A program made the position numbers and the translations under genes. From Candidatus Zixiibacteriota bacterium (GTDB lineage: Bacteria; Zixibacteria; MSB-5A5; GN15; FEB-12), in the NCBI GenBank assembly GCA_044227335.1, contig JBGAWZ010000001.1, positions 1 to 46,674 of the forward strand: DNA of 46,674 nt, given 5' to 3'. Within the stretch, counting starts at the first letter, position 1. Every line of letters starts with the position of its first letter. Below are positions 2,813-41,687 of this stretch, one piece after another. Under the pieces are notes generated by a model, which searched no databases, had not been told where the DNA came from, and saw only the letters and a list, made by a program, of their open reading frames with translations.

Positions 2813-5800
2813 CTACTGTAATCGGTTGGATGGTTGAGGTTGAGAAGGTTGTGCGCTCCGAGCTTTTGCTAACTTTATCCGTAACTCATTCGCTTTTGCA
2901 GTATCACCAGACTTAACGGCCTGCTTAATTTCCGTCAGTAACTTGTCAATCTGAGACCTTTGCTGTACGCGCCGGTAGTTGGCTTCGGCGGCGGTATTCC
3001 CCGGTGCCGTTCTAACTGGAGAAAACGCATTGATATATGGCGACGGTCTCAATATGACGCGCCCCTTAGCATCCGTGTACGGTTCCACCGTATCGCTTAA
3101 TCCGATCACGCTCTTTTTCAAGTCGTCAATAAATCCTTGCGGCATTTCGCGTGATCCTTTGCGGAAAACGGGATCGAGCATTGTGTTGACCCAAGTTTGA
3201 AATGAAACCAACGGAACGAATTGGCGAACGGGGTTAGACACCACATTCTTAATCAAGCTCTCCTCTCCGGCTACGCCCTTCACTAAATCGTTCACTCCGT
3301 CCATATAAGACTGGTCGGAGAAATACCGGGCGGTTCCTTTTATCATGTCGCCCAACTTATCCCACTGATCGTCTGAGAGTGCTTTCGGTTGCTCGTTGAC
3401 GTAGTAATTAGTAGCCGCCGCCAAAGCGAGAGGGAAAGCAAACGGGCCAAGTTTCGTGTAGCTGTACCAGTCGTTTCCGATCTTAACGGAATATGGCGGG
3501 TGAGCATCATAGAACGCCCGTCGTTGTGATTCTCCTCGTGGCGGGGCCCATGTAACATTCCCTTGAAACGCCCAATACGCCGCGCCCGCGTAGACGGTAC
3601 TCCCGATCATAGTCTTTGCTACCTGTTGCATCTTGGCTGTGTTGCCGGGTATTGTTGCAATACCAAGCGGGGAATACTCCACCCCCATTTTCGCAATCTG
3701 AGAGGGGGTCATCACAAATCGCAAATACCACTTGATCGGCTTTATCCCCTTGATTTCCGCCTCTCTCAACCGAAGCATCTGCGCGGTAACTTGATCGGCG
3801 AATGACAGAAGATGACCTTGACCGGATTCGTTCTTCGGGTCGAGCTTGGCGCGATAGAGCCACTTTTCCGCCTGATCCCGCGCTTGCTCGTTTATCTTTT
3901 CAAGGTCAATCCCCTTGCCTTGTCTCTTAGCTGTGGCCGCTAATTCCTCTTTGATACCACCCTCAAGAAATGCTCGGACAAATTGATCCCCCGCCTCCAT
4001 TGCTCTCGTAATGAAATAAAACTCTTTGACCACCGGGGCATTGGTGGGAATATGCGAAACGTCTGGCCTCTCGGTCGCAGACTTTCCGGTAAAGGCATCC
4101 CGCGCTCTGGCTATGGCATCGGGAGCGGCATTGACTACCCCCTTGAAATACGGTCTCTGATTCGCGTAGACGGTACGCTCCCTACCAATGAGTTTCGACG
4201 CCACAGCATCCATGCCGCCAGTCAATAGAGTTGTCGCCGGTTTGGTGAGTAGTAGGTTGCTGAGGTTACCAGTGAGATTGACTATCTGAGTATTCGGACT
4301 ACTCAACAAATTGATATAGGCGATTTCATCGAGTAAGTCATTGACTTTCCATTTTTCAAAATCTCGGTATGCCTCTGTGACTTGTCGAGCGTCGCGGACA
4401 TCTACTTTCGCCATACGCGCCGCAACTGCGTCAAGATCATGTCCCGCCTTTGTGAGTTTGTCGACTATCTCAACAAAGTATGGCTGTCGCGCTTCTCCGG
4501 CGTTTATTCGATACGCACCAAGTCTCCGGCCTGCGTCGGTCGCCCATGAAGAAGCAACCGCGATATTCTGCCCCAACTGTTTCCATGTTTCTGGCGACGC
4601 CTTCCCCGACTTTTCGATTTCACCGCCAAGTCGCGTCTGTTGCATCCGGGCGGATGTAATAGCTATTTCAGCTTGCTTTGTCGCCGCTCGGTCTGCGATA
4701 ACCGCCAAAGGTTCCGAGACAGCCGCCGCCTGCTCAACCTCTTTGAAGGTAACTGGTGCGCCCTTTTTCTTTGAGAGTTCCGATTGTAGGCGAGTTGCAT
4801 AATCACCAATCACCTTTTTGGTTGCTTCGGGGGCTTCGATCTTGTCAAGGTTTATCCCCGGCGCAACCTTCTCCGGCCTTACCCCCGCTCTCATTTCCTT
4901 GCCGGTCAACTTCCCGCCGCCCTCTTTGAGGGGTGAGCGCATCATCCCCGCACCGAGGACACCTATACCAAGCGCGGCAGAAGCTACGTCTTTGCGGTCG
5001 TCATCGTTCAGCGCACTATACGCCGCCGCGCCAGTGGCTACCCCTGCGGCTCCGAGCGCGATCTTGCCCTTCCCCCCCCCCTGCGGAGATACGGCTGGTT
5101 TGGAGAGTAGGCGTTCGGCCACATATCTATTTGCAACCGACGCTCTAAGAGTAGGGATAATGCGGGGGGCATCAACAGACATACCAACGGGCGGGCCTTC
5201 TTCGATTACTCCCTTTTCGGTAAGTCTCGCCAAACTGAGGGCAAGTTCTTGTATGCGCTTGGCGTCGCGTTCTTCTATACCGAGAGACTTCCGTATACCA
5301 TCAAGTGTAATCGGTCGGTTAATTCTCGTATCGAGACGTGGCTTGTCGAGTGAAAGACCCGATATTTTCTCGTATACAAGGCGGTCTATTGGTTCACTAA
5401 GATCAACAACCGCGTCAACCTTCCCCTCCCACGGCTGTTTCACCTGCGGAGATACGGGGGCGGGTTTGCCACCCTTATCCTTCATCGCTTCGCGGAATTT
5501 CCCGCCGACTAATCCAGCCAGCCCTAAACCCGCCGCGCCAAATCCTGCCGCTTGCGCTCTTTGATCTTCATTACCCGTCAGATAGTACGCACCTGTGGCT
5601 GTGATCCCGGCAATGCCAAGTCCGATCAGTGCTTTTGAAGGTCTGCCGATTCTCCCGCCCGATGCCACAAACTCAAGGTCTGAGCGCGGGAGAGTTGACA
5701 GCTTTTCGTCCGGTATCCGGCCCATTTGCCTGATTTCAGATTGGAGTTGTTCGGTTGGGGCTTCCTTGATCGCCCGCACCTCTGGCGTGCCAGTGGTAGC

Positions 5801-6700
5801 TTTCGGTGTCCTAATCATCGGCTCCGGTGCTTCGCCTACGTCCATGCCTTGCGGAACTGTTTTCCCGCCTCTTTGAATACCTGTGGCGCGGCCAAGCTCG
5901 GAGATAGGTTCGGGGCGTGGTTCGAGTCCAGTTGGGGTAGTCTCTGTGGGGATGGTTTCACGCGGAACCTCGGCAGGCCGCATCCCTCGCCGCACAAGGC
6001 CGGTCGCGCCCTTGAGTCCACCGGCCAACACCATGCCAGTACCGAACGGCGCAAACGGGTCTCGGTTGACCGTCTCTTTGGCTTGGGCTATTTCTTCCGG
6101 CGTCATCATCAGCCCTGCGGCCTTGTCGGCCAAGTCAGCCGGAGCCGTTGTCCAATCGGGGGGATTCTCCGTACCAAGTAGGTTCTGTACGCCATGTCGG
6201 TACAATTCCCCGCCCTGCGGTAAAATGGCCTTACCGCTTTGAATCAGGCCCGTGCCTGCACTTTTGACCGCCCCGCCTACGGTTAGACCCTGTTTTTCGG
6301 GATTGACCAGTTCGTCAGCGAATCGAGCCATGCCGGTAGTTAAAAACTGTGCGCCGCCGATTCCCGCCCGGAACGCCTCGCTACCGCCGCGTCTGAGGCC
6401 GGGGCCGTATTCCCTTTCCTTCTCAATCGAAGGATCGAGAACCGTCTTTTGAATATCTTCGTCTGTCAGCCGCGCCAGTTCGCCCGCTCCGGCCACAAGT
6501 GACTTGATACCACGAACGACAGGGGCAAACATCCGAGTTGGCAAACTGCCAGTCGGTTGCCCGTAATTGGACGGCGGCGGCGTAGCGTCTGCCACGTTGC
6601 CGGAGTCAGCAGTCCGGCCCGCCGCCGATTTAAGACGTAGGTACTCGTCTCGGAGCGAACCGCCCGATTTGAGCTGGATGTATTCGTCTCTCAAAGACAT
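2813..6700 (-). CDS. Large internal virion / DNA-ejection protein (1295 aa, similar in size and position to T7 gp16)
   Basis: ATG 6700 overlaps the upstream TAA (TAATG). Two glycine-zipper TM hairpins (nt 5501..5635 and 4940..5065). It follows two Gly/Gln-rich internal-protein-like genes. No tail tube or sheath genes are present, so a tape-measure role is unlikely. Confidence 0.55.
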   Translation of the reverse strand: MSLRDEYIQLKSGGSLRDEYLRLKSAAGRTADSGNVADATPPPSNYGQPTGSLPTRMFAPVVRGIKSLVAGAGELARLTDEDIQKTVLDPSIEKEREYGPGLRRGGSEAFRAGIGGAQFLTTGMARFADELVNPEKQGLTVGGAVKSAGTGLIQSGKAILPQGGELYRHGVQNLLGTENPPDWTTAPADLADKAAGLMMTPEEIAQAKETVNRDPFAPFGTGMVLAGGLKGATGLVRRGMRPAEVPRETIPTETTPTGLEPRPEPISELGRATGIQRGGKTVPQGMDVGEAPEPMIRTPKATTGTPEVRAIKEAPTEQLQSEIRQMGRIPDEKLSTLPRSDLEFVASGGRIGRPSKALIGLGIAGITATGAYYLTGNEDQRAQAAGFGAAGLGLAGLVGGKFREAMKDKGGKPAPVSPQVKQPWEGKVDAVVDLSEPIDRLVYEKISGLSLDKPRLDTRINRPITLDGIRKSLGIEERDAKRIQELALSLARLTEKGVIEEGPPVGMSVDAPRIIPTLRASVANRYVAERLLSKPAVSPQGGGKGKIALGAAGVATGAAAYSALNDDDRKDVASAALGIGVLGAGMMRSPLKEGGGKLTGKEMRAGVRPEKVAPGINLDKIEAPEATKKVIGDYATRLQSELSKKKGAPVTFKEVEQAAAVSEPLAVIADRAATKQAEIAITSARMQQTRLGGEIEKSGKASPETWKQLGQNIAVASSWATDAGRRLGAYRINAGEARQPYFVEIVDKLTKAGHDLDAVAARMAKVDVRDARQVTEAYRDFEKWKVNDLLDEIAYINLLSSPNTQIVNLTGNLSNLLLTKPATTLLTGGMDAVASKLIGRERTVYANQRPYFKGVVNAAPDAIARARDAFTGKSATERPDVSHIPTNAPVVKEFYFITRAMEAGDQFVRAFLEGGIKEELAATAKRQGKGIDLEKINEQARDQAEKWLYRAKLDPKNESGQGHLLSFADQVTAQMLRLREAEIKGIKPIKWYLRFVMTPSQIAKMGVEYSPLGIATIPGNTAKMQQVAKTMIGSTVYAGAAYWAFQGNVTWAPPRGESQRRAFYDAHPPYSVKIGNDWYSYTKLGPFAFPLALAAATNYYVNEQPKALSDDQWDKLGDMIKGTARYFSDQSYMDGVNDLVKGVAGEESLIKNVVSNPVRQFVPLVSFQTWVNTMLDPVFRKGSREMPQGFIDDLKKSVIGLSDTVEPYTDAKGRVILRPSPYINAFSPVRTAPGNTAAEANYRRVQQRSQIDKLLTEIKQAVKSGDTAKANELRIKLAKARSAQPSQPQPSNRLQ

Positions 6701-7464
6701 TACTGGCCGTTCTTCTGCCGCCAAAGGGCGACGTAATCCTCATATTCTTGGGGGCTTAGACTCCCGTCATTTGGCGGGGGAGCTTGCCGTTTCGACCGTA
6801 GACCCTGATTGATCTGGCCCGCCAATCCCATATTCATAGCAACACCCGGCTCATCTTCCGGTGAAAGTCCAACCTCGGCGGCAATAGAATCTCTACTCAA
6901 TCCGTATTGCGGAAACATCCCCGAATACCGATCAAAAGACCCCTTCATCGTCGGAGTCTTATCCGGTTCTTGACCAGTCGCCGACCACCTATTAAAACGC
7001 CTGTCATAGTCGGACTGGATTTTCTCAGTGAAATTAGGCGGTACGCGGCCCTTATTTGCGCTTTCTTTACTCGCCGCAATCCTTCCAATCAATTCGATTG
7101 CCTTTTCCCGCTCTTCCGGCGTTTTACCGTTGGCGGCAACGTGTTCAAGGTCGGAGTTAAACTTTTCAATTTCGAGGGCAAGCCGGTCACGCGCCGTCGC
7201 GTTCCCCGCCTCTGTCGCCGCCAGTTGGCCGCGCTTAATTTCAGACTCAAGCCCGAACTGCCGCAACTTGTCGCGCTCCAAATTGTAGTTCCGCTCATCG
7301 GCCTGTTCTAATCGGCGCGACTCCAAGCCGAATCTCTGTTGAGCCATTTGGTCTGCCGCCGCCTGCCGCCGCACCAACCCTTTTTGTCTCTGCCATTCGG
7401 GTATGGCCTCAGCCGCGTAGTCAGCCGTCCGAGTCAGTTGGTCGAGGAAATCGTTCAGTGCCAT
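6700..7464 (-). CDS. Internal virion/ejection protein candidate (254 aa, coiled-coil, charged)
   Basis: ORF track. TAATG coupling on both sides. Lies between the nozzle-like gene and the giant ejection protein. Confidence 0.4.
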   Translation of the reverse strand: MALNDFLDQLTRTADYAAEAIPEWQRQKGLVRRQAAADQMAQQRFGLESRRLEQADERNYNLERDKLRQFGLESEIKRGQLAATEAGNATARDRLALEIEKFNSDLEHVAANGKTPEEREKAIELIGRIAASKESANKGRVPPNFTEKIQSDYDRRFNRWSATGQEPDKTPTMKGSFDRYSGMFPQYGLSRDSIAAEVGLSPEDEPGVAMNMGLAGQINQGLRSKRQAPPPNDGSLSPQEYEDYVALWRQKNGQ

Positions 7465-7997
7465 TATCCCCTCACTTGGGCCAAGAACATGGCGATTTCA
7501 TTTTTCAGCTTTTCGTTCTGTAGGTCGAGGTCAACACTGGCCCCGGCTTCCTGATCCAAGATGTTCCCGGTAAACTCCCCAAAGGATCGGCCCTTATCGA
7601 ACCGATTGAACCGATCCCCTTGCTCCCCAAACCTTGAAGCGTCGTGCATGATCGCCATGCGCCGGCGGCTCAGTAGACCCGTCACGTTAAGTGGATTGTT
7701 GGCGCGGGCTTCCAGTCCTCGAATAGCGGTCTTTCGGGTGTTCTTGTACGGATCGCGCTTGAGTAGTTGAGCCAGTGCGCCGACACCTTTCAGGCCGATT
7801 CCAAGTAGAGGATTGGCGGCTCCCGCCGCGTTTCCGGCTGTGTTCAATCCGCTACTCAACCCGCTTTGTGGAGCTTGGTAGTTCTGATACTCAAGCCCGC
7901 CATATTGCGGCCCGTTCATTTGGGGTTTGAAAGACGCGGTGCTTGCCAGCCCTTGTTGATCGTAATTTGTGTAGTCGTCAAACGGATTGTACCCCAT
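7464..7997 (-). CDS. Internal virion protein candidate (177 aa, Gly/Gln/Asn-rich N-terminal half)
   Basis: ORF track, low-complexity composition, position in the operon. Confidence 0.4.
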   Translation of the reverse strand: MGYNPFDDYTNYDQQGLASTASFKPQMNGPQYGGLEYQNYQAPQSGLSSGLNTAGNAAGAANPLLGIGLKGVGALAQLLKRDPYKNTRKTAIRGLEARANNPLNVTGLLSRRRMAIMHDASRFGEQGDRFNRFDKGRSFGEFTGNILDQEAGASVDLDLQNEKLKNEIAMFLAQVRG

Positions 7998-7999: not shown

Positions 8000-10579
8000 T
8001 TACCTCGCGCTTCCTACACCTCTGAAGGTGTGAAAAATCTCTATCGCCTGAACCGAGCCGGTAGCGAAATTATACGAACCAATGCCAAGTGATTGCAATG
8101 TAATAGAGAGTCCCAACCCCCAATTCGCCGATGAGACGTACTTCCCACAGTAGCCAGTCGCCAGACTGTCAAAGGCAATCGCGCTCTCTAAAGCCGTTCC
8201 CTTTTCATTCGTGATTTCTCCAAAGAGAATATCAACCCCGGCAACGGCATCCCTCGCCTGTAGATTCACCTGTAGTATCTGATCGTAGTTGAAGTCAGGA
8301 TAGAGTAATGGAGTCTTGTACGCGATGGGACAGTACGCCCCGGTCTGAACATCTTTGCCGCTTGAGTTGGCGTATTTGTAAAGAGTCGATCCGCCCTTTT
8401 TGAAAAAGTAGAGCGTTTGAGTCGGGGTCAGTCCCACTGTGTTTCCGGTATCGTAGAGACACGCCCCCCCAAACGTCATGTTGGTAAAGGTAGACCATGC
8501 CTGCGCCGCAACATCATAAACGTAGGTAGTGTCTCCAATACACCACAGGGCTTGACGTTGATCGGGAAGGTATGCCCCTACGGCTCTGGACAGAGTAGTG
8601 ACCGACATTTTCTTAAAGTTGTCGAGCTTATCGGATACCAGTCCGCTTACGAAAGTTCTCTCAAGGTTCGGGCCTTCGCTTTCGAGGACAACACCGGCCC
8701 GACTCATGTACATATCTCCACTCTCAACTTTAACATGAGAGAGAGGGGCGATCATTCCATAACCTTCTGAAAGTTCGGCGTCCCTGAAATCCAGTCTCAG
8801 GTTGTAACCCCGATCATCTTTCTTGACTCTGATCGCGTTTCGGGTCAGCCACATTCCGGTTATTTGGTGTCCGTCATTCGGATCAAAGTCGGTGTAGTTC
8901 TGTAGCGGATAATTGGCCTGAGAGTCTACAAGCTGTGACGATCTCCAAAGTCGTGATCCGTACCAACCGAGAACTTGGTTGTTGACAGTAAGACCACCAG
9001 AGAATAACCCCGGACTTGTTTGGAGTTTGAACCGCCCGTTGAGATTTGCAGAATCACACCGGATCGAATCGACCAGAGAGTCTTGACTTGTCGGGACTTG
9101 TGCGACCCTTCTGAAATTGACCGCCGAAAGAGAATCGGTCGCTATTCCGTAGATCGGCCACCATTGACCCTTGAGTGTTCGGGCCGGTTGAATGTTCGTC
9201 CATATCGTATCGTATCTTGTGCATTGCCAACCCCCGGCAGTAAAGATTTCCGCCGCGCACACCAAGAAATACTGTCTCGCATATAGGGTAAGCTCAGAGC
9301 GGTAGACGTTCATCAACAAACCAGACTCATTCGCGCCCACGCGAGGAAGTCCTATCGTGATCCGGTGGAATCCGAGCGTCGAATCTTTCCGTTTCTGTCT
9401 AACCCAAAGAGTCCTGCCGGTATCAGATTCTAAACCCGTGAAGGTATCGACTATGGCGGTAGTGTAGGCATACCCCATATTCAGGTTGTCATGGTTCCCC
9501 GCCGCGCCCGCCCACATTTGATTTGCTCCACCAGTCACCGTATCAGAGCGTATAAACGTCGGCGCACTCCATCGTCTGTTTGAAATCACAGCCAGTGAAT
9601 CTCTACCATGAACCGATCTTAATGCAGTGGGATGGAGTAAGGAACCAAGCGAGGCGTCGGCGATGTTATCCGTGTAGGTAACTGTATCTGCCGTATAGTC
9701 CGCGCCGATCTTCAAATATATCTTGGTTGTGCTGATCCGAAACAGTGAGTCATTGTCACTAAACTCCCCCGGATTCGATCTTGTCCGGGCAATGTAGCAG
9801 TAGGCGGAGTCAACAGAGGAAAGCAATGAGTCCCGCACAACCCGCCCAAAGTTGCGGAGTAGCACCTGTCCGTTGCTTACGAAAATAGGGGGAGAGAGCG
9901 TACCGGCCTCAATCGAGTAACTAACACCACTTTTGAAAGCAGTGATGAGGTAGATGGCATATCTGTATTCCCCGTTCAGATTCCCCGATGTTGTAAGAGG
10001 GATCAGCTGGGGCAGTCCCGGAGCTTGCAGGGGGATGTTTCTCGCGTAGGTTCCATCCCAAATTATTCCTGTCTGCTGTCCATTGAAAGCGTAGAGCCGG
10101 TCGTTGAACTGGAAAAACGTGGTCGGTTTCTGTACTGACCAGTTTGTTGCAATCAATCTTGCTGAATCCAGATTCGTAGACCCGTACTGAGTCGCCCACA
10201 GACAACCATATCCTTTTGAGGTTGAATCAGTCGCAAAGACCAAACAGCGTTGACCATTGGCAAGGTTTACAACTCCAATCGCAATGATCGAATCGGCTCC
10301 GCTCTTGACACTGATCGAATCGAAACCCGGTCTCTTTGACAGAGTGCGAATACCGAACTTTGACAGCACGATGTTGTTGCAGATTCGCGCATATCGGGAG
10401 TCAATATCTCCGTCACCATCAACTGTGTTCAGTCCGAGAAACCCCGATATGCGGTCGAACTTCACGGGGTTTGTCTGCGCGTGACAGGTCGAGGACAGCA
10501 GTAGAGCCACGATAAGCAGAACGCCGATGATCGCGCCAAAGAAGGTTATGAATCTGAGGAAGTTCCGCGACTCGCTCAT
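8000..10579 (-). CDS. 859-aa tail nozzle/tubular-protein-B-like candidate (beta-rich, propeller-like) with an N-terminal signal peptide
   Basis: Size and position match podovirus nozzle genes. N-terminus is MSESRNFLRFITFFGAIIGVLLIVALLLSSTCHAQT. ATGA overlap with the upstream gene. Confidence 0.45.
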   Translation of the reverse strand: MSESRNFLRFITFFGAIIGVLLIVALLLSSTCHAQTNPVKFDRISGFLGLNTVDGDGDIDSRYARICNNIVLSKFGIRTLSKRPGFDSISVKSGADSIIAIGVVNLANGQRCLVFATDSTSKGYGCLWATQYGSTNLDSARLIATNWSVQKPTTFFQFNDRLYAFNGQQTGIIWDGTYARNIPLQAPGLPQLIPLTTSGNLNGEYRYAIYLITAFKSGVSYSIEAGTLSPPIFVSNGQVLLRNFGRVVRDSLLSSVDSAYCYIARTRSNPGEFSDNDSLFRISTTKIYLKIGADYTADTVTYTDNIADASLGSLLHPTALRSVHGRDSLAVISNRRWSAPTFIRSDTVTGGANQMWAGAAGNHDNLNMGYAYTTAIVDTFTGLESDTGRTLWVRQKRKDSTLGFHRITIGLPRVGANESGLLMNVYRSELTLYARQYFLVCAAEIFTAGGWQCTRYDTIWTNIQPARTLKGQWWPIYGIATDSLSAVNFRRVAQVPTSQDSLVDSIRCDSANLNGRFKLQTSPGLFSGGLTVNNQVLGWYGSRLWRSSQLVDSQANYPLQNYTDFDPNDGHQITGMWLTRNAIRVKKDDRGYNLRLDFRDAELSEGYGMIAPLSHVKVESGDMYMSRAGVVLESEGPNLERTFVSGLVSDKLDNFKKMSVTTLSRAVGAYLPDQRQALWCIGDTTYVYDVAAQAWSTFTNMTFGGACLYDTGNTVGLTPTQTLYFFKKGGSTLYKYANSSGKDVQTGAYCPIAYKTPLLYPDFNYDQILQVNLQARDAVAGVDILFGEITNEKGTALESAIAFDSLATGYCGKYVSSANWGLGLSITLQSLGIGSYNFATGSVQAIEIFHTFRGVGSAR

Positions 10580-12504
10580 TTCTTCAACTCCTGCCCTCTG
10601 GCTCTGATCGCCGCCACTTCTCTTTCATAGAGCTTTCCGTATCCCTCAACATTCGTCCAGTTGCTCATTATGATCTCACACTTTTGACACGCTTTGTATA
10701 TGAGTAGCTGTCGGTACTCTCTCGCAATATCAGTCGAGTCAGCATCGTTCGTCATGTAGTGGCCGTTGGCGTAGTATTCCACAAGGAACGTATCGACCGC
10801 AATTTCTTTCGGGTGCGTCTGCAATCTCCGACCGAAGGTGAAATAGTATCGAGGTGAAGAGGCATCCCCCCTCTTTTGCAGGACGCCTCCCATTCCACCG
10901 GAGAGATCAAAGAGCGAATCTTCAGAGACGTATATCAAGGGAATCCTGAGCGAGTCTTTGCCCATTTTCTTGAGCGAGTGAATCCGCAGGAAATCGGCGT
11001 TAAGCGCAACCCCCTCTCCCGTACTGGTCATTATCACCGTGTCGTATTTCTCGACGGCAGGGAGTTCTCGACATATCTCCGGTACAGAGGAATTGATTGC
11101 AAACTTGGCGACTCCCAGAGTGATCTTTGCGTTACCAGTCGAGGGAAATCCAAGTTGAGCCATGACCGCCGCCGCGAGTGAGTCAAGTCGATTGGAGATA
11201 TTTGTCAGTGGCAGGGTATCGCCGCAAGCGACTTGTAAGTAGTCCGTGTCGTGAACGGATCGCAATGTACTGGCGGCGTTCTGAATCGAGTCAAGAATAA
11301 CATTGACCGTATCACGAACCTTATCAAGTAGGGTAGTGTCAAACGTGGTAGCCGCTACCGCTTTCACGCTATCACCCGAACCGCCAGCGAATCCGATATA
11401 CTTTGACGTGTCGGCGAATAGGGCCGCTTTCACCTGTGCCGCAGTCGCACCAGACCCAGAAGCCCGGAGTGTGGACGATCCATTCTGCAACGTATCAAGA
11501 ATCGCATAGGTAGAGTCTTTCGTCACGAGGGAGCGATTCAACATCGTATCGCGTTGCGCCACCGTCCACGTCGTATTGGTGTCCACCCGTAAGGACGAAT
11601 TGACATTCTGGAGTGTGTCGAGTATCTCTTGTACAACAAGTTGGAATCTGCCGGTATTGTCGTAGGTTTTCAGGGTATCGAGCAACTCCTGTACGACCAA
11701 CTGGAACCGGGTAGCATTGTCGTACGTTTGGAGCGTATCGAGTATCTCCTGAACATCCGCCTGAAATCTTCCGGCATTGTCATAGACCTGAATTGAGTCT
11801 GCCGAAATGCGGGCATAGATCACCGCGTTGTGTATCGAGTCCCTGACCCAGTTGTCGTAGAGTTGGATACTGTCAAGTATCTCTTGAGCATCGGCTTGAA
11901 ATCGACCGGCGGCATCGTAGGTTTGTAGGGTATCAAGTATTTCCTGAACGTCGGCCTGAAACCGAGTAGCGTTGTCATAGACCTGCAAAGTATCAAGAAT
12001 AGTTTGGGTTGTTGCCCCTAAGTCCTTGGCCGTCTGTGATGTTCCGGCGACAGTCTTTACCTCATCAATCAAAGTATCCGCATATATCTCCATCGAGAAT
12101 TGCGTCTGAAACGGTGCGCCGAGTCGCCATAGAGTCACAACACCGGCGATCTGTCTTGTTGTTGTTCCTGCATTTATGATCCTTGCGGTGTCACAGAATA
12201 CAAACATTGGTGCGCCAACTGTATCGGCGCGTATCCCAAGAGCCGCAAGACCTGCCGCCGTAACGGTTGTCGTGCTTGTCCCGTAAATGACCTGAGATGT
12301 CGCCGCTCCCGTATCAGCACCAGTAGTAGCCCACACCGCAATAGTCGCGCTATCGGGCCATTTGATTGCGTTGTAGACACCCGTATCCATCGCGGGGTTG
12401 AGCGGGAAGTTCACAAGGCGAAGTGCCAACTTCTTACCAAGATCAATAGCTCCCACTTGCGAGGCGATTAGCGTGACAAAAATTAGAGCAATAATCCGCT
12501 TCAT
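10576..12504 (-). CDS. 642-aa fibre-like protein: signal peptide, 20-aa tandem repeats, and a C-terminal domain paralogous to the 228-aa protein at 13271..13957
   Basis: N-terminus MKRIIALIFVTLIASQVGAID. Repeats of the ILDTLQxYDNxxRFQxxVQE type. The C-terminal ~200 aa look roughly half identical, by eye, to the 13271..13957 product. Confidence 0.55.
   Translation of the reverse strand: MKRIIALIFVTLIASQVGAIDLGKKLALRLVNFPLNPAMDTGVYNAIKWPDSATIAVWATTGADTGAATSQVIYGTSTTTVTAAGLAALGIRADTVGAPMFVFCDTARIINAGTTTRQIAGVVTLWRLGAPFQTQFSMEIYADTLIDEVKTVAGTSQTAKDLGATTQTILDTLQVYDNATRFQADVQEILDTLQTYDAAGRFQADAQEILDSIQLYDNWVRDSIHNAVIYARISADSIQVYDNAGRFQADVQEILDTLQTYDNATRFQLVVQELLDTLKTYDNTGRFQLVVQEILDTLQNVNSSLRVDTNTTWTVAQRDTMLNRSLVTKDSTYAILDTLQNGSSTLRASGSGATAAQVKAALFADTSKYIGFAGGSGDSVKAVAATTFDTTLLDKVRDTVNVILDSIQNAASTLRSVHDTDYLQVACGDTLPLTNISNRLDSLAAAVMAQLGFPSTGNAKITLGVAKFAINSSVPEICRELPAVEKYDTVIMTSTGEGVALNADFLRIHSLKKMGKDSLRIPLIYVSEDSLFDLSGGMGGVLQKRGDASSPRYYFTFGRRLQTHPKEIAVDTFLVEYYANGHYMTNDADSTDIAREYRQLLIYKACQKCEIIMSNWTNVEGYGKLYEREVAAIRARGQELKK
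11605..12006 (-). repeat. In-frame 60-nt (20-aa) tandem repeat array, about 6 units with one expanded or degenerate unit. Two more isolated ILD(T/S)(L/I)QN motifs lie downstream
   Basis: Repeated ...ILDTLQ(V/T)YDN(A/T)(T/G)RFQ(A/L)(D/V)VQE... visible in both the protein and the DNA. Confidence 0.85.
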
Positions 12505-13274
12505 TTATTTGTCCTTGAATTGGCAGTTCTTCGCGTTCGATTGTAGGTAGCCGTTGCCACAGGATAAACCGCCTTCGTGTAGACCACCTTCAGCTTCGGA
12601 CGATTCCCACTGGTCGCGTTGTCGTCGGTGTAGATTTGACACAGTTGATCCCATGTAGTGTAACTCCCATACCATGGGAAATAGAAAATGAACCCCCCAT
12701 GCGTTTTAGCTGTGTCGCCCGCATCCATTGTCTGCGCCACCGCCGTCAAATCAAACTTACCAACCGAATCCGTCCCCCAAGAAAATGTTGCCCAGTTGTA
12801 TGTGATACTGACTGTTGTGTCAATGTCGTTAGATACGTTGCGCCCACCGCTTGTGTTCCACGTTGTCAATGCTTTGTAGTTTTCCCAAGAAGCTCCCGTT
12901 TCCGTCCACTTCGTGGGCGACGTGACTCCACGCCTCACCCGCGCACACTTGAATTGACCGGTCGTAGCGCGGTCGAGCGTTCCGAGATTACTTTTCACAA
13001 TAAGCGTACACGCCTTGATGTAGAGATTTGCGCCACCATGATTTAGTGAGTCCCCAAGGGCGTCCCATCGGAATAAGAGATTAGCACTCTGAGAAGTCGG
13101 GACAGAATCATACCACCATGCAGTTGTGTTTGTACCGTAATTCGTCGTAGTCGCCGCCTGATTGATATACGTCATATCACATTCGGGGCCAGTACCAGCC
13201 CCGATAGTGAACGTCGTGTCGGCGAACACCGTGACAGCACACAGTAAGAGAACTATGAGGGCAAGGTATTTCAC
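12501..13274 (-). CDS. 257-aa signal-peptide protein with a DNRLRE-like (carbohydrate-binding-like) domain pattern
   Basis: GTG start with GTGA overlap. N-terminus MKYLALIVLLLCAVTVFADT. Motifs ...TNYG...LLFRWD...GANLYIKACTLIV...NRPKLKVVY resemble the DNRLRE domain consensus recalled from memory. Confidence 0.45.
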   Translation of the reverse strand: MKYLALIVLLLCAVTVFADTTFTIGAGTGPECDMTYINQAATTTNYGTNTTAWWYDSVPTSQSANLLFRWDALGDSLNHGGANLYIKACTLIVKSNLGTLDRATTGQFKCARVRRGVTSPTKWTETGASWENYKALTTWNTSGGRNVSNDIDTTVSITYNWATFSWGTDSVGKFDLTAVAQTMDAGDTAKTHGGFIFYFPWYGSYTTWDQLCQIYTDDNATSGNRPKLKVVYTKAVYPVATATYNRTRRTANSRTNK

Positions 13275-13957
13275 CGCTTGAGCTCCTCGCGTCGTGACAC
13301 CGGAGGCAGTCGCATTTCGTTGTACATACTATCCACCGAAAACGCAGACCTGAAATCCGATAGCTGAATGAGTGCTTTCATTCTCACCTTGAGTAACAAA
13401 GCGGGCCGGTAATCATCTGGAATCAATGTCGTATCTGAATCGGCCCCCAAGTAATTAGGCGTCGCAAAGTATTCGATCAGAAACTTGTCGGGGCTTCCCG
13501 ATTCTCTGAGTCCCTTCGGATGAGTCTGGAATCTTTTCCCAAACGTCGAATACCAGTGCGGGCTTTCGATCTTGTCCCGATCTTGTTTGACTCCCTGCAA
13601 TCCACCCGTCTTTTCAAAGAGACTGTCGGGGTTCGTTACGTCAAGCGGAATCCGTAAAGTATCTCCTATGATCCTCGAAGCTCGGTGTATTCGTAGGAAA
13701 TCAGAGTTGAGAGCCGCGCCTTCCCCTGTTTTGGAAATCAGAACCGTATCGAACTTCTCTATTGCCGGAAAGTCTCGTGACACCTCTACGGCAGATTCGT
13801 TGATAAACATATTCACGTTCGCAGTGGTCAGCTTTCCATTTGTAGACGGTAATCCGAGAGCTGTATATGTATACGCTCTCAGTGAATCCCTACGGGGGGA
13901 GATCGCCCAAGAGGATTGAGCGAGAATGAGTAGAAAGCATACGAGCTTTGTCACCAT
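13271..13957 (-). CDS. 228-aa signal-peptide protein, adaptor-like domain, paralog of the 642-aa protein C-terminus
   Basis: ATG 13957 (TGATG overlap). N-terminus MVTKLVCFLLILAQSSWAIS. Shared blocks are AIEKFDTV..TGEGAALNSDFLRIH..LRIPL..DSLF and FG(K/R)R(F/L)QTHPK. Confidence 0.5.
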   Translation of the reverse strand: MVTKLVCFLLILAQSSWAISPRRDSLRAYTYTALGLPSTNGKLTTANVNMFINESAVEVSRDFPAIEKFDTVLISKTGEGAALNSDFLRIHRASRIIGDTLRIPLDVTNPDSLFEKTGGLQGVKQDRDKIESPHWYSTFGKRFQTHPKGLRESGSPDKFLIEYFATPNYLGADSDTTLIPDDYRPALLLKVRMKALIQLSDFRSAFSVDSMYNEMRLPPVSRREELKR

Positions 13958-14649
13958 CAATATCCATGCAGAGAGTTCATGTTTTGGAATCGTTGCCGCG
14001 TGGATTGATCGAGGGAAGCCGGATCGGATTCCGCGTTTGAACCCTGATAGCTTGAGACCATGTTATTGAAACTGGCCTCCGCCGTTTTCGCGTAACCCGG
14101 AACAAACTTCTTGATGATATTATCGACAATCACACCCTCCCACCCTTTCGGCCACTGTTCACAACTGAGATTGTTCTTTCGATACCGATAGCGGATTGTA
14201 TCGCCAGAAGAGATCGGAGACCCGGCAAGCTCTACGACGGGCTTGTCATTCTGTCTGGCAGTTCTAATCCAATACTTCACAACCGTCAGTAATGACCTGT
14301 CGGGATAGAGCGAGTCAAGTGTGGTATCATCTATTGAATTAAGTAGCTTGAGGGTCGCGCCATATCGAATGTTGATGATGTCCCTTGCGTCCTGTTTCTT
14401 CCCTTCAAGTTTGTACTCGGACACATTCGCCAGAGACCCACCGGGGAAATCCGTCACGTCGCAAGTGAAATCAAAATCTTGGTGAGCACACTCATCCACG
14501 CTAATATCCACCTCTAACTCTACCGCCTTTTGAAGGTCAGCGATAGGATAGTCCTCTTGCACCAAGGCGTTACCAACAACCGCTACTCTTTTAAGTCCGC
14601 GTATTGCGGGTTTAGACATCACAAGAGCGACGAAATCCGCTTTTGTCAC
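13957..14649 (-). CDS. 230-aa head-tail adaptor-like candidate (no signal peptide)
   Basis: GTG start with GTGA overlap. Lies downstream of the capsid genes. Loose pattern resemblance to the 13271..13957 domain. Confidence 0.35.
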   Translation of the reverse strand: MTKADFVALVMSKPAIRGLKRVAVVGNALVQEDYPIADLQKAVELEVDISVDECAHQDFDFTCDVTDFPGGSLANVSEYKLEGKKQDARDIINIRYGATLKLLNSIDDTTLDSLYPDRSLLTVVKYWIRTARQNDKPVVELAGSPISSGDTIRYRYRKNNLSCEQWPKGWEGVIVDNIIKKFVPGYAKTAEASFNNMVSSYQGSNAESDPASLDQSTRQRFQNMNSLHGY

Positions 14650-15946: not shown

Positions 15947-17125
15947 TTAGTTGTAGGCACCGACAAACATCGCATGGCGGGATTCGTTGGCGACCAACAG
16001 AGACCGCGCCGTACGATAAGTGTCAATGATGATTTCAGATTGCCCGATAGGCTTAGCCTCCGGGATGAACTGTTCTGCCGCAAGCTCTTTCAGTGTGATT
16101 CTGTCCATATCCAGAATCCAACCCCAACCGCGAGTCCAAGGATCAGTCAGAAGGGGCAAAGAGACAAGGTTGGCAGTAAGACCGCGTGAGGTGTAGGTCT
16201 TAATATCAAGTCCGAAATTAGACCACTTCGGATCGATACGAAGAGTGTGGAGCGCGAAAGAGTCGATCATGTCGATAACATGACCGGCACAGGCGACAAA
16301 GACGTTGGTCGCATCGGGATTCTGGTCTTTGAAATCTCCCAAGAGATTCCGCCAACCGGATTCAGTGAAGAGGCCGTTGTAGTCTTTGTACAGAGTACCA
16401 TTTCGGAGGAAGTAGGTCAGCCCGCCCGCCATCCCGACAGTCGCCGGGGCGGTTCCAGTCTGAGACCGTCCACCAAAATACATACCCTGTTCGCCCTTGA
16501 CGCGAAACTCGCGGTATTTCTGCTGTTGCAACTGCGTCCGCTTTGATCCGGGGCCGCCAAACCAAGTCGTTTCCGCATTGGCGAGTCGATTGATACCGAA
16601 CTGGAGCTTAATCAGTTGGATGTAGTTGTAAACATTTGTATCAGTCACCGAAGAGGTGCGATACGTTGCATCGTCATTCTCGACGATAGCGGGTGGCAAA
16701 ACCTTTAGCACATCACCGGCGTTCCATGCCGCTCCCGTTGACCCGCCTACGCTACGAGTAATCGTAACGGAGTTGGCCGCCGGAGTAGAGTCAACACTTG
16801 CCAAGTCGAAGGTTCTGGGATTAAACAGAACAGTTCCGGCTACAAGGGTAGGCCCGTTGGCATTAACGGTTAGTGTGGTTCCCGAAGAAGTCACTGCCGC
16901 CGTACACAGTACGGATGTCGGTATGTGTTGCTCTTCGATAAGGTCAACACGGACATTTCTCGCGGGTTCGCGTGAAATGCGGGTCAGGATGGTCGTCAAC
17001 GGCGTAAGCTCTGGAAAAGCTGTCAGCCGCTTAGACCATATATCTGCCGGGACTTCATTGGTTGTGAAAAGGTTCTGAGACCCTCCCGTCACTACGGTCG
17101 ATTGACTCAGAAGATAATCTGGCAT
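15947..17125 (-). CDS. Major capsid protein (HK97-fold, DUF5309/SU10-like pattern)
   Basis: 392 aa. Lies directly after the scaffold-like gene and downstream of the portal. The C-terminal pattern ...GWILDMDRITLKEL...IIIDTYRTARSLLVANESRHAMFVG resembles HK97-like capsid families. Confidence 0.7.
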   Translation of the reverse strand: MPDYLLSQSTVVTGGSQNLFTTNEVPADIWSKRLTAFPELTPLTTILTRISREPARNVRVDLIEEQHIPTSVLCTAAVTSSGTTLTVNANGPTLVAGTVLFNPRTFDLASVDSTPAANSVTITRSVGGSTGAAWNAGDVLKVLPPAIVENDDATYRTSSVTDTNVYNYIQLIKLQFGINRLANAETTWFGGPGSKRTQLQQQKYREFRVKGEQGMYFGGRSQTGTAPATVGMAGGLTYFLRNGTLYKDYNGLFTESGWRNLLGDFKDQNPDATNVFVACAGHVIDMIDSFALHTLRIDPKWSNFGLDIKTYTSRGLTANLVSLPLLTDPWTRGWGWILDMDRITLKELAAEQFIPEAKPIGQSEIIIDTYRTARSLLVANESRHAMFVGAYN

Positions 17126-17170
17126 TAAGGTACTTCGCTTTCAGTGGCCGAGGCCACAAGGTTCTACGTT
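17126..17170 (-). promoter_or_regulatory. Leader element upstream of the capsid gene: AACGTAGAACCTT / hairpin GTGGCCTCGGCCAC / AAGCGAAGTACCTTA abutting the ATG
   Basis: Read on the minus strand. Parallels 2220..2265. No canonical SD is present. Confidence 0.5.
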
Positions 17171-17190
17171 GTCCAGTTTATTAGACTGTG

Positions 17191-18132
17191 TTACCAGACA
17201 AGCGGAATAGTATCAGGCGCGATCTGATCCGCCGTCTTTTTCTCTGCCGCTTTCAATTCGTCTCCAAACAGAATCTTGCCGCTTGGCGCGGGAGACCCGA
17301 TTGGCTTAGGTAATTTATCCAAAGCCGCCAATTTATCCTTGTCGGCTTGTTCTGTGGCTGTCAGTCGGGTTGTTACCGACTTAGCTGTCCGAGCGGCCTC
17401 AAGATTCTTGATAACCAAGCGGACAATGGCGTTTGATTTCCCCGGCACGTTAGCAAAAGGAAGCTGTACCGCCTCTTGCATCACACCGGAAAACTCCGCC
17501 ATAAACGCCTTTGATTCTTCCGGGGTAGTCCCGTTTAATGGAGTGAGTCGGTAAGAATCTACCGGGCCGTCCGGTCTTGAAGCGACAGGATCATATCGAT
17601 AACCAAGAGCCGCGAGATACCCATTCAACCCGTCTAATGACTCGTTGAAATCACGATCCATTTCAGCGTTGAAGGTTTTCTCATACTCGGCGTCCCGCTC
17701 TTTTTGGAGTCGAGCCAGCAAGTTTGCTTCCGCCCTTGCTGTCGCTTGGTCGGCAATAATCGCCGCCGCATTCGGTTTCAGTTGCCCGTATTCGTCATAA
17801 ATAGACGGTTCAGTCACAGGCTGAGTCTCCACCTTAGCGGGAGCCGGAGTGATTTCCTCGGCGGCTACCATCTTCGGGTTCGATCTCAACTTTTCCCTGA
17901 ACTGGTCGAAATTCTTGTCGATCTGGGACAACCTCCCCATTGAAGCCCGATAAGCCGCCAAGACTTGCTCATGTTTTTCAACAGAGACGAATCCTTCGGG
18001 GGCTTTCTCCGGTTCCTTGATAGGTCCCGGTTCGGTCTTTGGCGGATCAGTTATCACCGGTTCCGGCTGTTTTTCAACAGTCGTATCTGGGGCAATCTGA
18101 TTCGCCATTTCTTCGGGGGTTAGTTCAGCCAT
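17191..18132 (-). CDS. Scaffolding protein candidate (313 aa, acidic, Pro/Glu-rich N-terminus, helical)
   Basis: Lies between the portal and capsid genes. Composition is typical of scaffolds. Confidence 0.55.
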   Translation of the reverse strand: MAELTPEEMANQIAPDTTVEKQPEPVITDPPKTEPGPIKEPEKAPEGFVSVEKHEQVLAAYRASMGRLSQIDKNFDQFREKLRSNPKMVAAEEITPAPAKVETQPVTEPSIYDEYGQLKPNAAAIIADQATARAEANLLARLQKERDAEYEKTFNAEMDRDFNESLDGLNGYLAALGYRYDPVASRPDGPVDSYRLTPLNGTTPEESKAFMAEFSGVMQEAVQLPFANVPGKSNAIVRLVIKNLEAARTAKSVTTRLTATEQADKDKLAALDKLPKPIGSPAPSGKILFGDELKAAEKKTADQIAPDTIPLVW

Positions 18133-18135
18133 AAA

Positions 18136-20835: not shown

Positions 20836-20847
20836 ATTTGTTTCAGT

Positions 20848-22702: not shown

Positions 22703-22759
22703 TGCAATAAATTGCTATGTTGCACGATTTTGCACTTTGGCGGTTGACTGTCAGTTGAT

Positions 22760-41623: not shown

Positions 41624-41687
41624 GATAAACTCCTTAGTTTGGGGTTGCCTAAAGAAAAGGATTTGTTTTTTGACAGGTCAAGGGAAA

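Follow-up and report, generated by a model that had tools for sequence, protein, structure and literature searches.

In long-tailed phages, a connector-closed head and a pre-built tail are joined later, with SPP1 gp15, gp16 and gp17 or lambda gpW, gpFII and gpU as examples, and both pathways are cytoplasmic. We know of no T7- or P22-type tail protein with an export signal, and to our knowledge no signal peptides are reported for the ring and barrel proteins of phicrAss001. In the latter phage (7qog, 7qoj), several such proteins of adaptor fold are stacked below the portal. In known podoviruses, binding of adaptor and nozzle to the portal immediately follows packaging and keeps the DNA inside, and in T7 this assembly of tail parts on the portal takes place in the cytoplasm (PMC6702177). 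Host Sec and signal peptidase are used by a number of phage proteins, namely filamentous-phage coat proteins, spanins, SAR endolysins and the Q-rule proteins of P. gingivalis phages (PMC10367356). However, these are lysis, surface-modifying or filamentous-virion proteins, and none of them belongs to the core of the tail in a tailed phage. In the literature searched, we found no export signals on T7- or P22-type tail proteins, and neither a report nor a precedent of an adaptor or nozzle protein with such a signal.

The stretch of DNA analysed here (46,674 nucleotides, called the window below) presents the entire 46.5-kb genome of an uncultured short-tailed phage (podophage), which is a remote relative of SU10; its 140-bp terminal repeat indicates that the genome is complete or circular. 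SU10 (Escherichia phage, Kuravirus; PMC9509320; PDB 7z47, 7z4b) shares with it the gene order of head, adaptor, tail and internal proteins, its gp11 adaptor corresponds to the 228-aa protein and its gp17 nozzle to the fold of the 859-aa protein, and relatives of the window phage carry SU10-type capsid and portal proteins. The folds and genome positions are shared as well with T7 (gp11 adaptor, gp12 nozzle) and P22 (gp4 and gp10), and the muzzle protein of phicrAss001 resembles the 859-aa nozzle. Unlike the window proteins, SU10 gp11 and gp17 lack a signal peptide under the n/h/c rule used here; moreover, SU10 has one adaptor gene, whereas the window lineage has a signal-bearing adaptor and a signal-less protein upstream of it, and sequence identity between the two phages is 25% or undetectable. 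No close relative of the window phage was found among deposited phage genomes.

Signal-bearing proteins in the genome

All four genes at 8000-13957 on the minus strand encode proteins with n-h-c signal-peptide-like N-termini (Table 1). A preliminary description had reported four consecutive tail-position genes with Sec-type N-termini; the open reading frames and N-termini agree with its quotation, and our rule flags all four. These calls come from our own rule-based n/h/c test, and small residues at -1 and -3 are forced by the rule. On the whole, the test flags 10 of the 60 window proteins, nine of them convincing and one doubtful (the endolysin), while in SU10, taken as the control under the same rule, 2 of 55 proteins are flagged, a holin and one weak false positive, with no true case. 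The genome thus holds nine such proteins instead of four, the other five being located outside the four-gene block. Among them, the four at 40398..46240 are probably fibre or accessory proteins; they come after the internal proteins across the circular junction, and at the equivalent place the relatives have signal-bearing proteins of 500-1270 aa. The fifth, of 171 aa, has no family match. As for the endolysin, its flagged N-terminus (MLDSKSLARLASCDPRLINIVMA/VE) has a hydrophobic run that is short, late and preceded by charged residues, for which reason we judge this signal a false positive. An endolysin without a convincing signal implies that a holin must open the inner membrane, and that lysis is holin-dependent.

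The N-termini of the four proteins are translated. The 859-aa gene starts with ATG at 10579 in an ATGA overlap with the TGA of the 642-aa gene, the 642-aa gene with ATG at 12504 in an ATGA overlap with the TGA of the 257-aa gene, the 257-aa gene with GTG at 13274 in a GTGA overlap with the TGA of the 228-aa gene, and the 228-aa gene with ATG at 13957 in a TGATG overlap with the TGA of the 230-aa gene upstream, with TTG at 13960 as an alternative start. The earlier statement that such overlaps pin the starts is therefore borne out. Upstream of three of the four starts there is an AGGAG-like Shine-Dalgarno motif, and the four translations contain no downstream Met within more than 30 residues and no internal start past the signals.

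Table 1. Features of the window phage, with positions in the window
Feature	Position	Strand	Basis or assignment	Predicted signal peptide
Small membrane proteins	2344-2598 and 2565-2795		small membrane character	
Three signal-less proteins downstream of the nozzle (177, 254, 1303 aa)	2813..7997	minus	internal/ejection, packaged in the head	
859-aa nozzle (tail hub)	8000..10579	minus	AF2 and Foldseek; beta-propeller-rich body	residues 1-34 (nt 10579-10478), .../STCHA/QT, Q at +1
642-aa repeat-rich protein with C-terminal adaptor domain	10576..12504	minus	BLASTP, phrog_2941	residues 1-19 (nt 12504-12448), MKRIIALIFVTLIASQVGA/ID
257-aa DNRLRE-like protein	12501..13274	minus	NF033679 below cut-off	residues 1-18 (nt 13274-13221), MKYLALIVLLLCAVTVFA/DT
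228-aa exported adaptor paralogue (predicted)	13271..13957	minus	PF24175, fold match	residues 1-18 (nt 13957-13904), MVTKLVCFLLILAQSSWA/IS
230-aa signal-less protein, adjoining the 228-aa gene upstream	13957..14649	minus	candidate adaptor paralogue; positional equivalents in L013, L014 and L015 pass PF24175	
Head module without signals	15947..22272	minus	homology and position	
Capsid-position protein, 392 aa	15947-17125	minus	position only	
Proteins of 137 aa and 313 aa (scaffold-like)	within 15947..22272	minus	signal-less	
Portal	18546-20360	minus	39% identical to L006 portal	
Terminase large subunit	20848-22272	minus	tblastn match to annotated terminases	
171-aa protein	36819..37334	minus		MKKYIVIAALLLCGSAFA/QL, Q at +1
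Endolysin, 136 aa	39980..40390	minus	phrog_465, E 1e-30; Peptidase_M15_4 weak	
285-aa signal-bearing protein	40398-41255	minus	N-terminus	
123-aa signal-bearing protein	41252-41623	minus	N-terminus	
1263-aa signal-bearing protein, Calx-beta	41688-45479	minus	PF03160, 27.5 bits	
257-aa signal-bearing protein	45467-46240	minus	N-terminus	

Identity of the proteins

In its mature part, the 228-aa protein is a head-to-tail adaptor of the SU10 type. It matches Pfam PF24175 SU10_adaptor with 39.7 bits (cut-off 27), and the best PDB match of its family profile is SU10 gp11 (7z47_A). In the AF2 model (pLDDT 76), the top 17 Foldseek matches in the PDB are all podovirus adaptors, with SU10 gp11 at E 7e-8 and TM 0.54, and the BFVD matches agree with the adaptor fold of a helix bundle plus a beta domain; the helix of residues 2-15 stands apart from the fold, residues 11-20 having an average pLDDT of 65. 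The predicted structure of the 859-aa protein shows the fold of a podovirus nozzle. Its AF2 model (pLDDT 71) finds podovirus nozzle or hub proteins in all the top 23 PDB matches of Foldseek, with E from 1e-17 to 6.5e-9 and with TM of only 0.2-0.3, low values that we relate to the several domains of the protein. The best match is SU10 7z4b_DW (E 1e-17), taken to be the gp17 nozzle by its length (910 residues modelled; gp17 has 1005 aa), followed by the crAss001 muzzle, T7 gp12 and P22 gp10. At the sequence level, there is no Pfam, PHROG or NCBIfam match for the 859-aa protein, no PDB match for its profile, and no significant hhalign result against SU10 gp17. Here too the N-terminal helix of the model is detached from the fold, with residues 30-35 below pLDDT 50. 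Both assignments had been proposed before, with a structure search suggested as the check, and the search supports the nozzle and the adaptor alike.

The 642-aa protein has 20-residue repeats at about residues 180-310 and ends in a copy of the adaptor, with its residues 436-642 aligned to adaptor residues 19-228 (BLASTP, 43% identity, E 1e-52) and its residues 482-635 matching phrog_2941. In one related genome, L001, a signal-bearing orthologue (44%) is located elsewhere. The mature part of the 257-aa protein of the block resembles the DNRLRE domain of NCBIfam NF033679 (E 8.6e-5, 22.7 bits, under the cut-off of 34; profile positions 2-163 of 164), of which it is not a member, and is putatively a glycan-binding beta-sandwich; it has no Pfam or PHROG match. 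Its gene is not found at this position in the related genomes, where the nozzle directly follows the adaptor.

In the head module, the relatives match PF23899 SU10_portal, and the 392-aa protein has no match in the searches, its assignment to the capsid being positional only. Downstream of the nozzle, the 1303-aa protein matches phrog_6651, an internal virion protein (E 6e-19). The four signal genes sit, as had been noted, between head genes and internal proteins. None of the proteins at the 177-, 254- and 1303-aa positions is flagged in the window or in the eight relatives. Overall, the adaptor and the nozzle are both flagged in all nine related genomes, while portal, capsid-position and internal proteins are flagged in none of the nine; the head/tail partition of the signals is strict across these genomes.

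Conservation and character of the signals

The signal-like N-termini are not due to chance and are kept lineage-wide. In the adaptor family, 135 of 150 cluster representatives are signal-bearing, the remainder being mostly truncated, and in the nozzle family all 14 proteins keep a signal-like N-terminus at 28-44% identity; together with the nine genomes, this answers the question raised earlier whether the N-termini are conserved in related contigs. What is kept in both families is the character of the signal, the sequence itself being unconserved, and the same feature is present on unrelated proteins, i.e. fibre-like, DNRLRE-like and small ones. The n-region carries K or R somewhere in residues 2-6 in 138 of the 144 flagged adaptors, and K or R stands ahead of the hydrophobic core in all four window proteins. 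The h and c regions of the adaptors together have a median length of 14 residues (IQR 13-16, maximum 21), which is too short for a stable membrane anchor. The hydrophobic cores had been given as 12-20 residues, but the core of the 859-aa protein has about 24, within a range of 22-24 that it shares with its four closest relatives. Such a core is long for a cleavable signal and could serve as an uncleaved anchor.

The cleavage motifs are plain in the four window proteins (SWA/I, VFA/D, VGA/I and CHA/Q). Among the 144 adaptors, A is at -1 in 115 and V or A at -3 in 100, figures that are partly circular as the rule requires small residues there. The +1 position is not used by the rule, and here Gln is found in 51 of 144 adaptors (35%) versus 3.4% in the mature parts, an enrichment of about tenfold; it is also found in most distant nozzle homologues, and in only two of the nine window signals. 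Gln at +1 is the "Q-rule" mark of signal peptidase I in Bacteroidetes (PMC5837995, PMC10653852), also seen in phage Sec substrates with Bacteroidetes hosts, and its enrichment at a position which the rule ignores likely indicates real cleavage. A lipoprotein signal is not in evidence, with Cys at +1 in 1 of 144 adaptors and a canonical lipobox in none of the four window N-termini.

The signal is an add-on to a complete domain: in the 642-aa protein, the alignment of the paralogous domain begins at adaptor residue 19, exactly at the predicted cleavage site. The same is indicated by signal-less paralogues that reach Pfam position 1 from residue 1, by the RLDS motif conserved in the adaptor family 5-11 residues past the cleavage site, and by SU10 gp11 and gp17 being without signal. 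In addition, the cysteine content of the exported proteins is 1.21% versus 0.52%, although several of the counts are odd numbers, and cysteines are gained or lost pairwise in loops of the nozzle family; both give weak support for export.

A second adaptor copy without signal in related genomes

A signal-less protein lies directly upstream of the exported adaptor in every genome except one short, partial contig. This upstream paralogue is flagged only once (L006), which we judge a false positive. In three related genomes (L013, L014 and L015), the positional equivalents of the 230-aa protein pass PF24175 with 31.5-48.7 bits, with profile position 1 at residue 1, and in L007 the equivalent reaches 20.4 bits, under the cut-off. 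By these profile matches three of the related genomes, and weakly a fourth, hold a second adaptor copy of PF24175 type that lacks a signal. For the 230-aa protein of the window there is no Pfam match and no significant adaptor match; the comparison of its group with the PF24175-type group by hhalign gives E 1.9e-4 with a probability of 48%. The protein is a candidate for a cytoplasmic adaptor paralogue that would be seated on the portal. The preliminary description had passed over this upstream candidate, the adaptor copy ending the 642-aa protein and the five extra signal proteins.

Possible routes of tail assembly

The pattern of signals on core tail parts suggests, short of proof, that tail assembly takes place outside the cytoplasm. 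Our best explanation, held at a probability of about 0.45, is that the tail is exported through Sec, processed, assembled outside the cytoplasm, and then joined at lysis to adaptor-sealed heads; what we infer here comprises export and signal cleavage, the role of the 230-aa protein as an adaptor, assembly in the periplasm and the union of heads and tails at lysis. If this is true, it would be an assembly of the tail outside the cytoplasm, which is not described for tailed phages. The external tail parts would be, lineage-wide, precursors with cleavable Sec/signal-peptidase-I signals, and the exported set would include the 228-aa second adaptor, the 859-aa nozzle, the 642-aa repeat-rich protein, anchored via its adaptor-like domain, the 257-aa DNRLRE-like accessory protein and several fibre-like proteins. 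The head (portal, capsid and internal ejection proteins) would be built and filled in the cytoplasm and capped by the signal-less, adaptor-like 230-aa protein. After passage through Sec, the tail proteins would be freed of their signals, often with Gln as the newly exposed residue, and would then fold and form the tail in the periplasm. Finally the holin, needed by the signal-less endolysin too, would breach the inner membrane, and heads would meet tails and be joined to them by the stacking of two adaptor-type rings.

The stacked adaptor-fold proteins of phicrAss001 are a precedent for two adaptor paralogues, and the joining would work like that of long-tailed phages, with the differences that the tail would lie across the inner membrane and that the window proteins are not homologous to siphovirus connectors. 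A tail kept in another compartment means that the head must be stable without it, which we infer from the 230-aa protein only. The time from holin triggering to cell rupture is brief, which could make the joining inefficient. Among the options first put forward was assembly of the tail in the periplasm or tethered to the membrane; it remains the best reading, with added support from the head/tail signal partition and from a signal-less neighbour which in some relatives is a further copy of the adaptor.

It is unlikely that the signals only target the inner membrane, with tail parts tethered there as signal anchors or jammed Sec substrates, and with heads receiving their tails at the membrane, so that no free tail would exist in the periplasm. 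Head and tail would be kept near each other in this way, and the length of the hydrophobic core in the window nozzle could be accounted for, as could the general difficulty of exporting large, fast-folding oligomeric beta-propellers by Sec. However, a signal anchor puts the body of the protein in the periplasm, so that the compartment problem persists, and typical short signals predominate, with small residues at -1 and -3 and Gln at +1 favouring processing.

We also consider it quite improbable that the N-terminal segments escape cleavage and are retained in the virion, where they would form membrane-active or plugging helices, e.g. a bundle in the tail channel that inserts into the host envelope at infection and replaces the tail needle. 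Parts that penetrate membranes are indeed required by short-tailed phages (PMC9509320), the Pfam and PHROG searches revealed no needle-like gene, and the stretch of 22-24 residues in the window nozzle and in the four proteins closest to it has the length of a transmembrane helix; most family members, with 13-16 residues in the h and c regions, are nevertheless too short for a membrane span. The tenfold enrichment of Gln at +1 is sensible only if signal peptidase exposes this residue (PMC5837995). Moreover, the feature is found on unrelated proteins, only the character of the segment is conserved, and in the AF2 models of both nozzle and adaptor the helix is detached behind a less confident linker.

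A dual use has little probability in our view, where exported copies would act outside the virion, e.g. in receptor masking, exclusion of superinfecting phages or envelope remodelling, and virion copies would come from a pool escaping export. Phages do encode Sec substrates altering the cell surface, as the Q-rule proteins of P. gingivalis phages have been interpreted (PMC10367356), and binding to envelope glycans is conceivable for the DNRLRE-like and Calx-beta proteins. But the adaptor and the nozzle are not receptor binders and yet are the most consistently signal-bearing, in nine of nine genomes, and virion copies would keep an uncleaved hydrophobic N-terminus; no internal start exists past the signals. 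The proposal of secreted non-virion factors, also made in the preliminary description, conflicts with the core tail folds of the 859- and 228-aa proteins, and is possible only for the 257-aa DNRLRE-like protein.

An artefact of wrong start codons or chance hydrophobic N-termini is hardly credible, for although the test is rule-based only, with the endolysin and one SU10 protein as probable false positives, the starts overlap upstream stop codons, no Met follows for more than 30 residues, and the feature is seen again in independent homologues (135 of 150 adaptors, 14 of 14 nozzles) as well as in nine genomes.

Hints on the host

On the third option first put forward, a host with an unusual cell plan, only two hints on the host are at hand: a contig binned in a Krumholzibacteria MAG, and the Q at +1 of the Bacteroidetes type. 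As far as we know, Bacteroidetes rarely use Shine-Dalgarno-like motifs, and the presence of such motifs ahead of 32 of the 60 window genes would argue against a Bacteroidetes host for this phage.

Signal-like N-termini in the window

All real genes of the window lie on the minus strand. The four tail-region open reading frames listed in the preliminary description are confirmed on the window sequence at the same positions and with the same N-termini. Their starts had been taken as fixed by overlap with the preceding genes, and this holds for all four, which overlap the upstream stop codons by ATGA (859- and 642-aa proteins), GTGA (257-aa protein) and TGATG (228-aa protein); three of them are also preceded by AGGAG-like ribosome-binding sites. 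Since the starts overlap upstream stops, use of a downstream start codon is rejected.

The N-termini were judged by a rule-based test of our own, not a trained predictor, with four requirements: a non-negative n-region, an uncharged hydrophobic core that starts early and averages 2.2 or more on the Kyte-Doolittle scale across 8 residues, a small residue at each of -1 and -3, and no Pro at +1. On the whole, 10 of the 60 window proteins are flagged, including all four reported ones, while the test flags 2 of 55 in the control Escherichia phage SU10, namely one holin and one weak false positive. The one doubtful case in the window is the endolysin (phrog_465), whose flagged N-terminus is no convincing signal peptide. 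Convincing signal-like N-termini are found in nine of about 60 proteins, the four reported and five more. Lipoprotein signals are rejected, as the N-termini have no lipobox. Among the remaining 39 window proteins, no phage-encoded Sec, signal peptidase, Dsb or glutaminyl cyclase gene is identified.

Features of the window and of related contigs (L numbers)
Feature	Position	Strand	Remark
859-aa protein	8000-10579	minus	ORF with signal-like N-terminus
642-aa protein	10576-12504	minus	ORF with signal-like N-terminus
257-aa protein	12501-13274	minus	GTG start; signal-like N-terminus
228-aa protein	13271-13957	minus	ATG start, TTG one codon upstream; signal-like N-terminus
230-aa protein	13957-14649	minus	positional equivalent of the relatives' signal-less paralogues
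Signal-bearing protein	36819-37334	minus	rule-based test
Signal-bearing protein	40398-41255	minus	rule-based test
Signal-bearing protein	41252-41623	minus	rule-based test
Signal-bearing 1263-aa protein	41688-45479	minus	Calx-beta domain
Signal-bearing protein	45467-46240	minus	N-terminus MKRIIYLAIYLAIMAGSAWG
Upstream signal-less proteins	L013:8603-9280, L014:9351-10019, L015:8383-9075		pass PF24175
Portal-adjoining small signal-bearing proteins	L001:4381-4902, L004:3984-5008, L006:4308-4802, L007:4796-5884, L014:3047-4107, L015:4275-5257

Identity of the tail proteins

Sequence methods give no matches for the 859-aa protein, and its family is not significantly similar to SU10 gp17, the nozzle, in sequence comparison. 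Its 13 homologues in 5.8 billion clusters provided the alignment for an AlphaFold model (pLDDT 71), in which an N-terminal helix (2-33) leads by a linker of low confidence (30-35) into a body rich in beta structure. Podovirus nozzle or hub proteins make up all of the 23 best PDB fold matches, among them SU10 virion chain 7z4b_DW (E 1e-17), the phicrAss001 muzzle, cyanophage A4, Kp9, T7 gp12, P22 gp10 and Sf6; low TM-scores (0.2-0.3) such as these are to be expected when a protein has several domains. The predicted structure thus bears out the earlier assignment as a nozzle. In addition, cysteine pairs bracket variable loops in the family (P0001-P0013; residues 441 and 453 in the window protein) and are gained or lost together: VC..12..C occurs in P0001, P0002 and P0005 and is absent from P0003 and P0004, and KC..11..C occurs in P0010 and P0012. 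This is the pattern that would be expected of disulfide-bonded loops in extracytoplasmic proteins.

The 228-aa protein, suggested earlier to be an adaptor, proves to be one by both profile and fold. It scores 39.7 bits against Pfam PF24175 SU10_adaptor (cut-off 27), and the best PDB sequence for a profile of 35 family members is the SU10 adaptor gp11. In its model (pLDDT 76), helix 2-15 stands apart from the fold, whose top matches are head-to-tail adaptors only (Pa223, SU10 gp11 with TM 0.54, A4, KHP30, N4, the phicrAss001 rings, GP4 and DEV), and the BFVD matches agree.

The 642-aa protein begins with a signal and an N-terminal region, after which come at least five 20-residue repeats (QEILDTLQ..., ..RFQADVQEILDTLQTYDNA..) and a C-terminal domain. 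Residues 436-642 match adaptor residues 19-228 with 43% identity (E 1e-52), so that the match spans the whole mature adaptor, precisely from the predicted cleavage site onwards. In L001 the orthologue of the 642-aa protein is found instead among the fibre genes (L001:18611-20662), and it is a speculation that such an adaptor-domain-fused fibre might slot into the adaptor ring. The 257-aa protein resembles the DNRLRE domain along the full profile, below threshold. Since the adaptor is followed directly by the nozzle in most relatives, the 257- and 642-aa genes are additions here in the window.

Partition of signals in related genomes

Eight related contigs were read (L001, L004, L006, L007 and L012 to L015), whose capsids and portals match SU10 families; L001, L006 and L007 come from sediment and anaerobic samples. 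Seven of the eight share a common gene order, and the short, partial L012 is readable only in part. The order runs from head genes through a signal-less protein of 220-238 aa, a signal-bearing adaptor and a signal-bearing nozzle to three signal-less internal proteins and then further large proteins with signals. In nine of nine genomes the test flags both adaptor and nozzle, and in none does it flag the portal, capsid-position or internal proteins.

The signal-less protein (about 225 aa) lies directly upstream of the exported adaptor in all related genomes read except L012. In L013, L014 and L015 it passes PF24175 with residue 1 aligned at profile position 1, and these three genomes therefore have two adaptor paralogues, one with and one without a signal; for L007 this holds weakly. 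The 230-aa protein of the window is tied to the signal-less paralogues by a weak profile match only (E 1.9e-4); comparison of the profile of its group with the exported adaptors is not significant, and no PDB match is found.

Two further kinds of proteins are seen in the relatives. One or two small signal-bearing proteins (150-196 aa), absent from the window, adjoin the portal gene, and in two relatives the interval between capsid and adaptor genes codes for a protein of about 200-236 aa (L001:7920-8630, L006:7852-8454), whose L006 member has a faint glycosyltransferase-like (Anp1) match that might hint at glycosylation of virion parts.

Conservation and character of the signals

The preliminary description had asked whether the hydrophobic N-termini are kept in relatives, and they are. 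All 14 nozzle-family proteins (the 13 homologues and the cluster member P0014; 28-44% identity) have signal-like N-termini. With the adaptor as query, HMMER run exhaustively over 1.84 billion cluster representatives (clusters at 50% identity) yielded 164 relatives, of whose best 150 the test flags 135, the unflagged rest being mostly truncated. Canonical SU10 gp11 and gp17 have no signals by the same test. Pairwise identity does not discriminate the signal from the mature region, the former being of low complexity. That the whole pattern is an artefact is next to negligible in probability beside this conservation.

In the adaptor family the predicted h- and c-regions together have a median length of 14 residues (interquartile range 13-16, maximum 21), as is usual in cleavable signals and not enough for a membrane anchor; the first conserved motif of the mature protein, RLDS[LIM], follows 5-11 residues past the predicted site. 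Tethering to the membrane alone is unlikely at such a length. Gln occupies +1 in 35% of the family, compared with 3.4% Gln in the mature parts, and this position, the exclusion of Pro apart, is not used by the test. Gln at +1 is a hallmark of Bacteroidetes signal-peptidase-I substrates, where it is cyclised to pyroglutamate (PMC5837995; PMC10653852), and its enrichment is the strongest indirect sign of real signal cleavage. Uncleaved N-termini serving as membrane-active helices are distinctly unlikely beside it. Dual use, in which the exported copies would be non-virion proteins, is highly unlikely. The related proposal of secreted, non-virion factors interleaved with the structural genes is rejected for the 859- and 228-aa proteins, which have core tail folds.

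A proposed model of tail assembly outside the cytoplasm

Read most economically, the signals are what they look like, functional Sec/signal peptidase I signals, and the external tail is extracytoplasmic; we consider the signals probably functional and cleaved. The tail is placed outside the cytoplasm because its external parts are all signal-bearing, while head and internal ejection proteins have no signals. The latter, needed beside the DNA, would stay in the cytoplasm, where heads would be filled and capped by the signal-less adaptor-like protein. The short tail (second adaptor ring, nozzle and fibres) would leave the cytoplasm through Sec, be cut by signal peptidase I and be put together in the periplasm, with the exported adaptor on top of this separately built tail; two such stacked rings would resemble the stacked adaptor-fold rings known in phicrAss001. 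Heads and tails would meet only once the inner membrane is breached. As the endolysin has no convincing signal, a holin must open this membrane, which would also allow head-tail contact.

We give the whole model, an exported tail joined to heads at lysis, a probability of about 0.45. In long-tailed phages, heads and tails are as a rule built by separate pathways. The main difficulty is that in known podoviruses adaptor and nozzle bind the portal immediately after packaging, retaining the DNA (PMC6702177). Two-compartment morphogenesis in a tailed-phage lineage, which would be the first extracytoplasmic tail assembly in Caudoviricetes, is put forward tentatively, at somewhat less than even odds.

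In the textbook view, tailed virions are assembled wholly in the cytoplasm. Here conserved export signals sit on the portal-sealing parts, an adaptor copy and the nozzle, in an uncultured lineage of at least 164 sequence clusters (50% identity). If these signals work, the site of tail assembly can shift to the other side of a membrane, tail-less heads must be stable, and lysis must be coupled to head-tail joining. Candidate reasons for exporting tails would then be disulfide- or calcium-dependent folding, N-terminal pyroglutamate capping, or keeping glycan-active or DNA-triggering parts from the cytoplasm. Annotation pipelines in which a signal peptide counts against a role in the virion would misfile such proteins. 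Adaptor and nozzle are known kinds of protein; the signals on them, the relatives' paired adaptor genes and the implied route are, as far as found, new. The full-text literature searched gave no precedent for tail, adaptor or nozzle proteins with signal peptides, the nearest being Q-rule signal proteins (Gln at +1) of unknown function in Porphyromonas phages (PMC10367356).

Relatives and host

Among 50,697 deposited phage genomes, tblastn finds no match to any of three different adaptors, to the nozzle, to the portal or to 6 kb of DNA, and the IMG/VR viral contigs give none with the nozzle or an adaptor alignment as query. Two scans of GTDB representative genomes give no relative, so that neither prophage nor host can be assigned. 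A metagenome scan gives only four short loci, and a word-indexed protein search with the adaptor alone or its alignment gives few matches, none named. A 13-kb all-phage contig that was binned in a Candidatus Krumholzibacteria MAG carries one of the nozzle homologues; the related contig with this binning encodes a Cpn10 (GroES-like) co-chaperonin (L012:187-498). The Q-rule points to Bacteroidota as putative hosts for much of the family. The host of the window itself is uncertain, because Gln occurs at +1 in only two of its nine signals and Shine-Dalgarno-like motifs are present at 32 of 60 genes, compared with 13% at random positions.

Other features of the genome

An exact 140-bp direct terminal repeat (1-140 and 46535-46674) shows the genome to be complete, circular or terminally redundant, with about 46.5 kb; the fibre-like signal-bearing genes at 40-46 kb thus come after the internal proteins across the junction. 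Downstream of the nozzle are three signal-less proteins, the 1303-aa one being an internal virion protein (phrog_6651). The upstream head genes encode the terminase, the portal (by a homology chain), a scaffold-like protein and a capsid-position protein, assigned as capsid by position only.

Neither strand of the region 141-2340 (about 2.2 kb) shows a convincing ORF, which is odd in so tightly packed a phage genome. The AT skew of this region runs contrary to that of the remaining genome, no Rfam family reaches the gathering score in it, and strong repeats are absent. A tRNA-Pro (anticodon TGG; 22965-23037, minus) is found by both ARAGORN and Rfam, and the overlapping 111-aa ORF (22695-23030) is probably spurious. 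Adjoining the endolysin, a 104-aa protein (39666-39980, minus) has a dATP/dGTP diphosphohydrolase N-terminal domain (PF18909, E 1e-11); enzymes of this type occur in base-modifying phages. Two adjacent N6/N4 DNA methylase genes (23156-24145 and 24142-24807, minus) are almost identical in their first 25 residues (MNLPINQIITGDCLEVMRGWPDE.., MTLPINQIITGDCLEVMRGWPDK..), and the pair looks like a tandem duplication.
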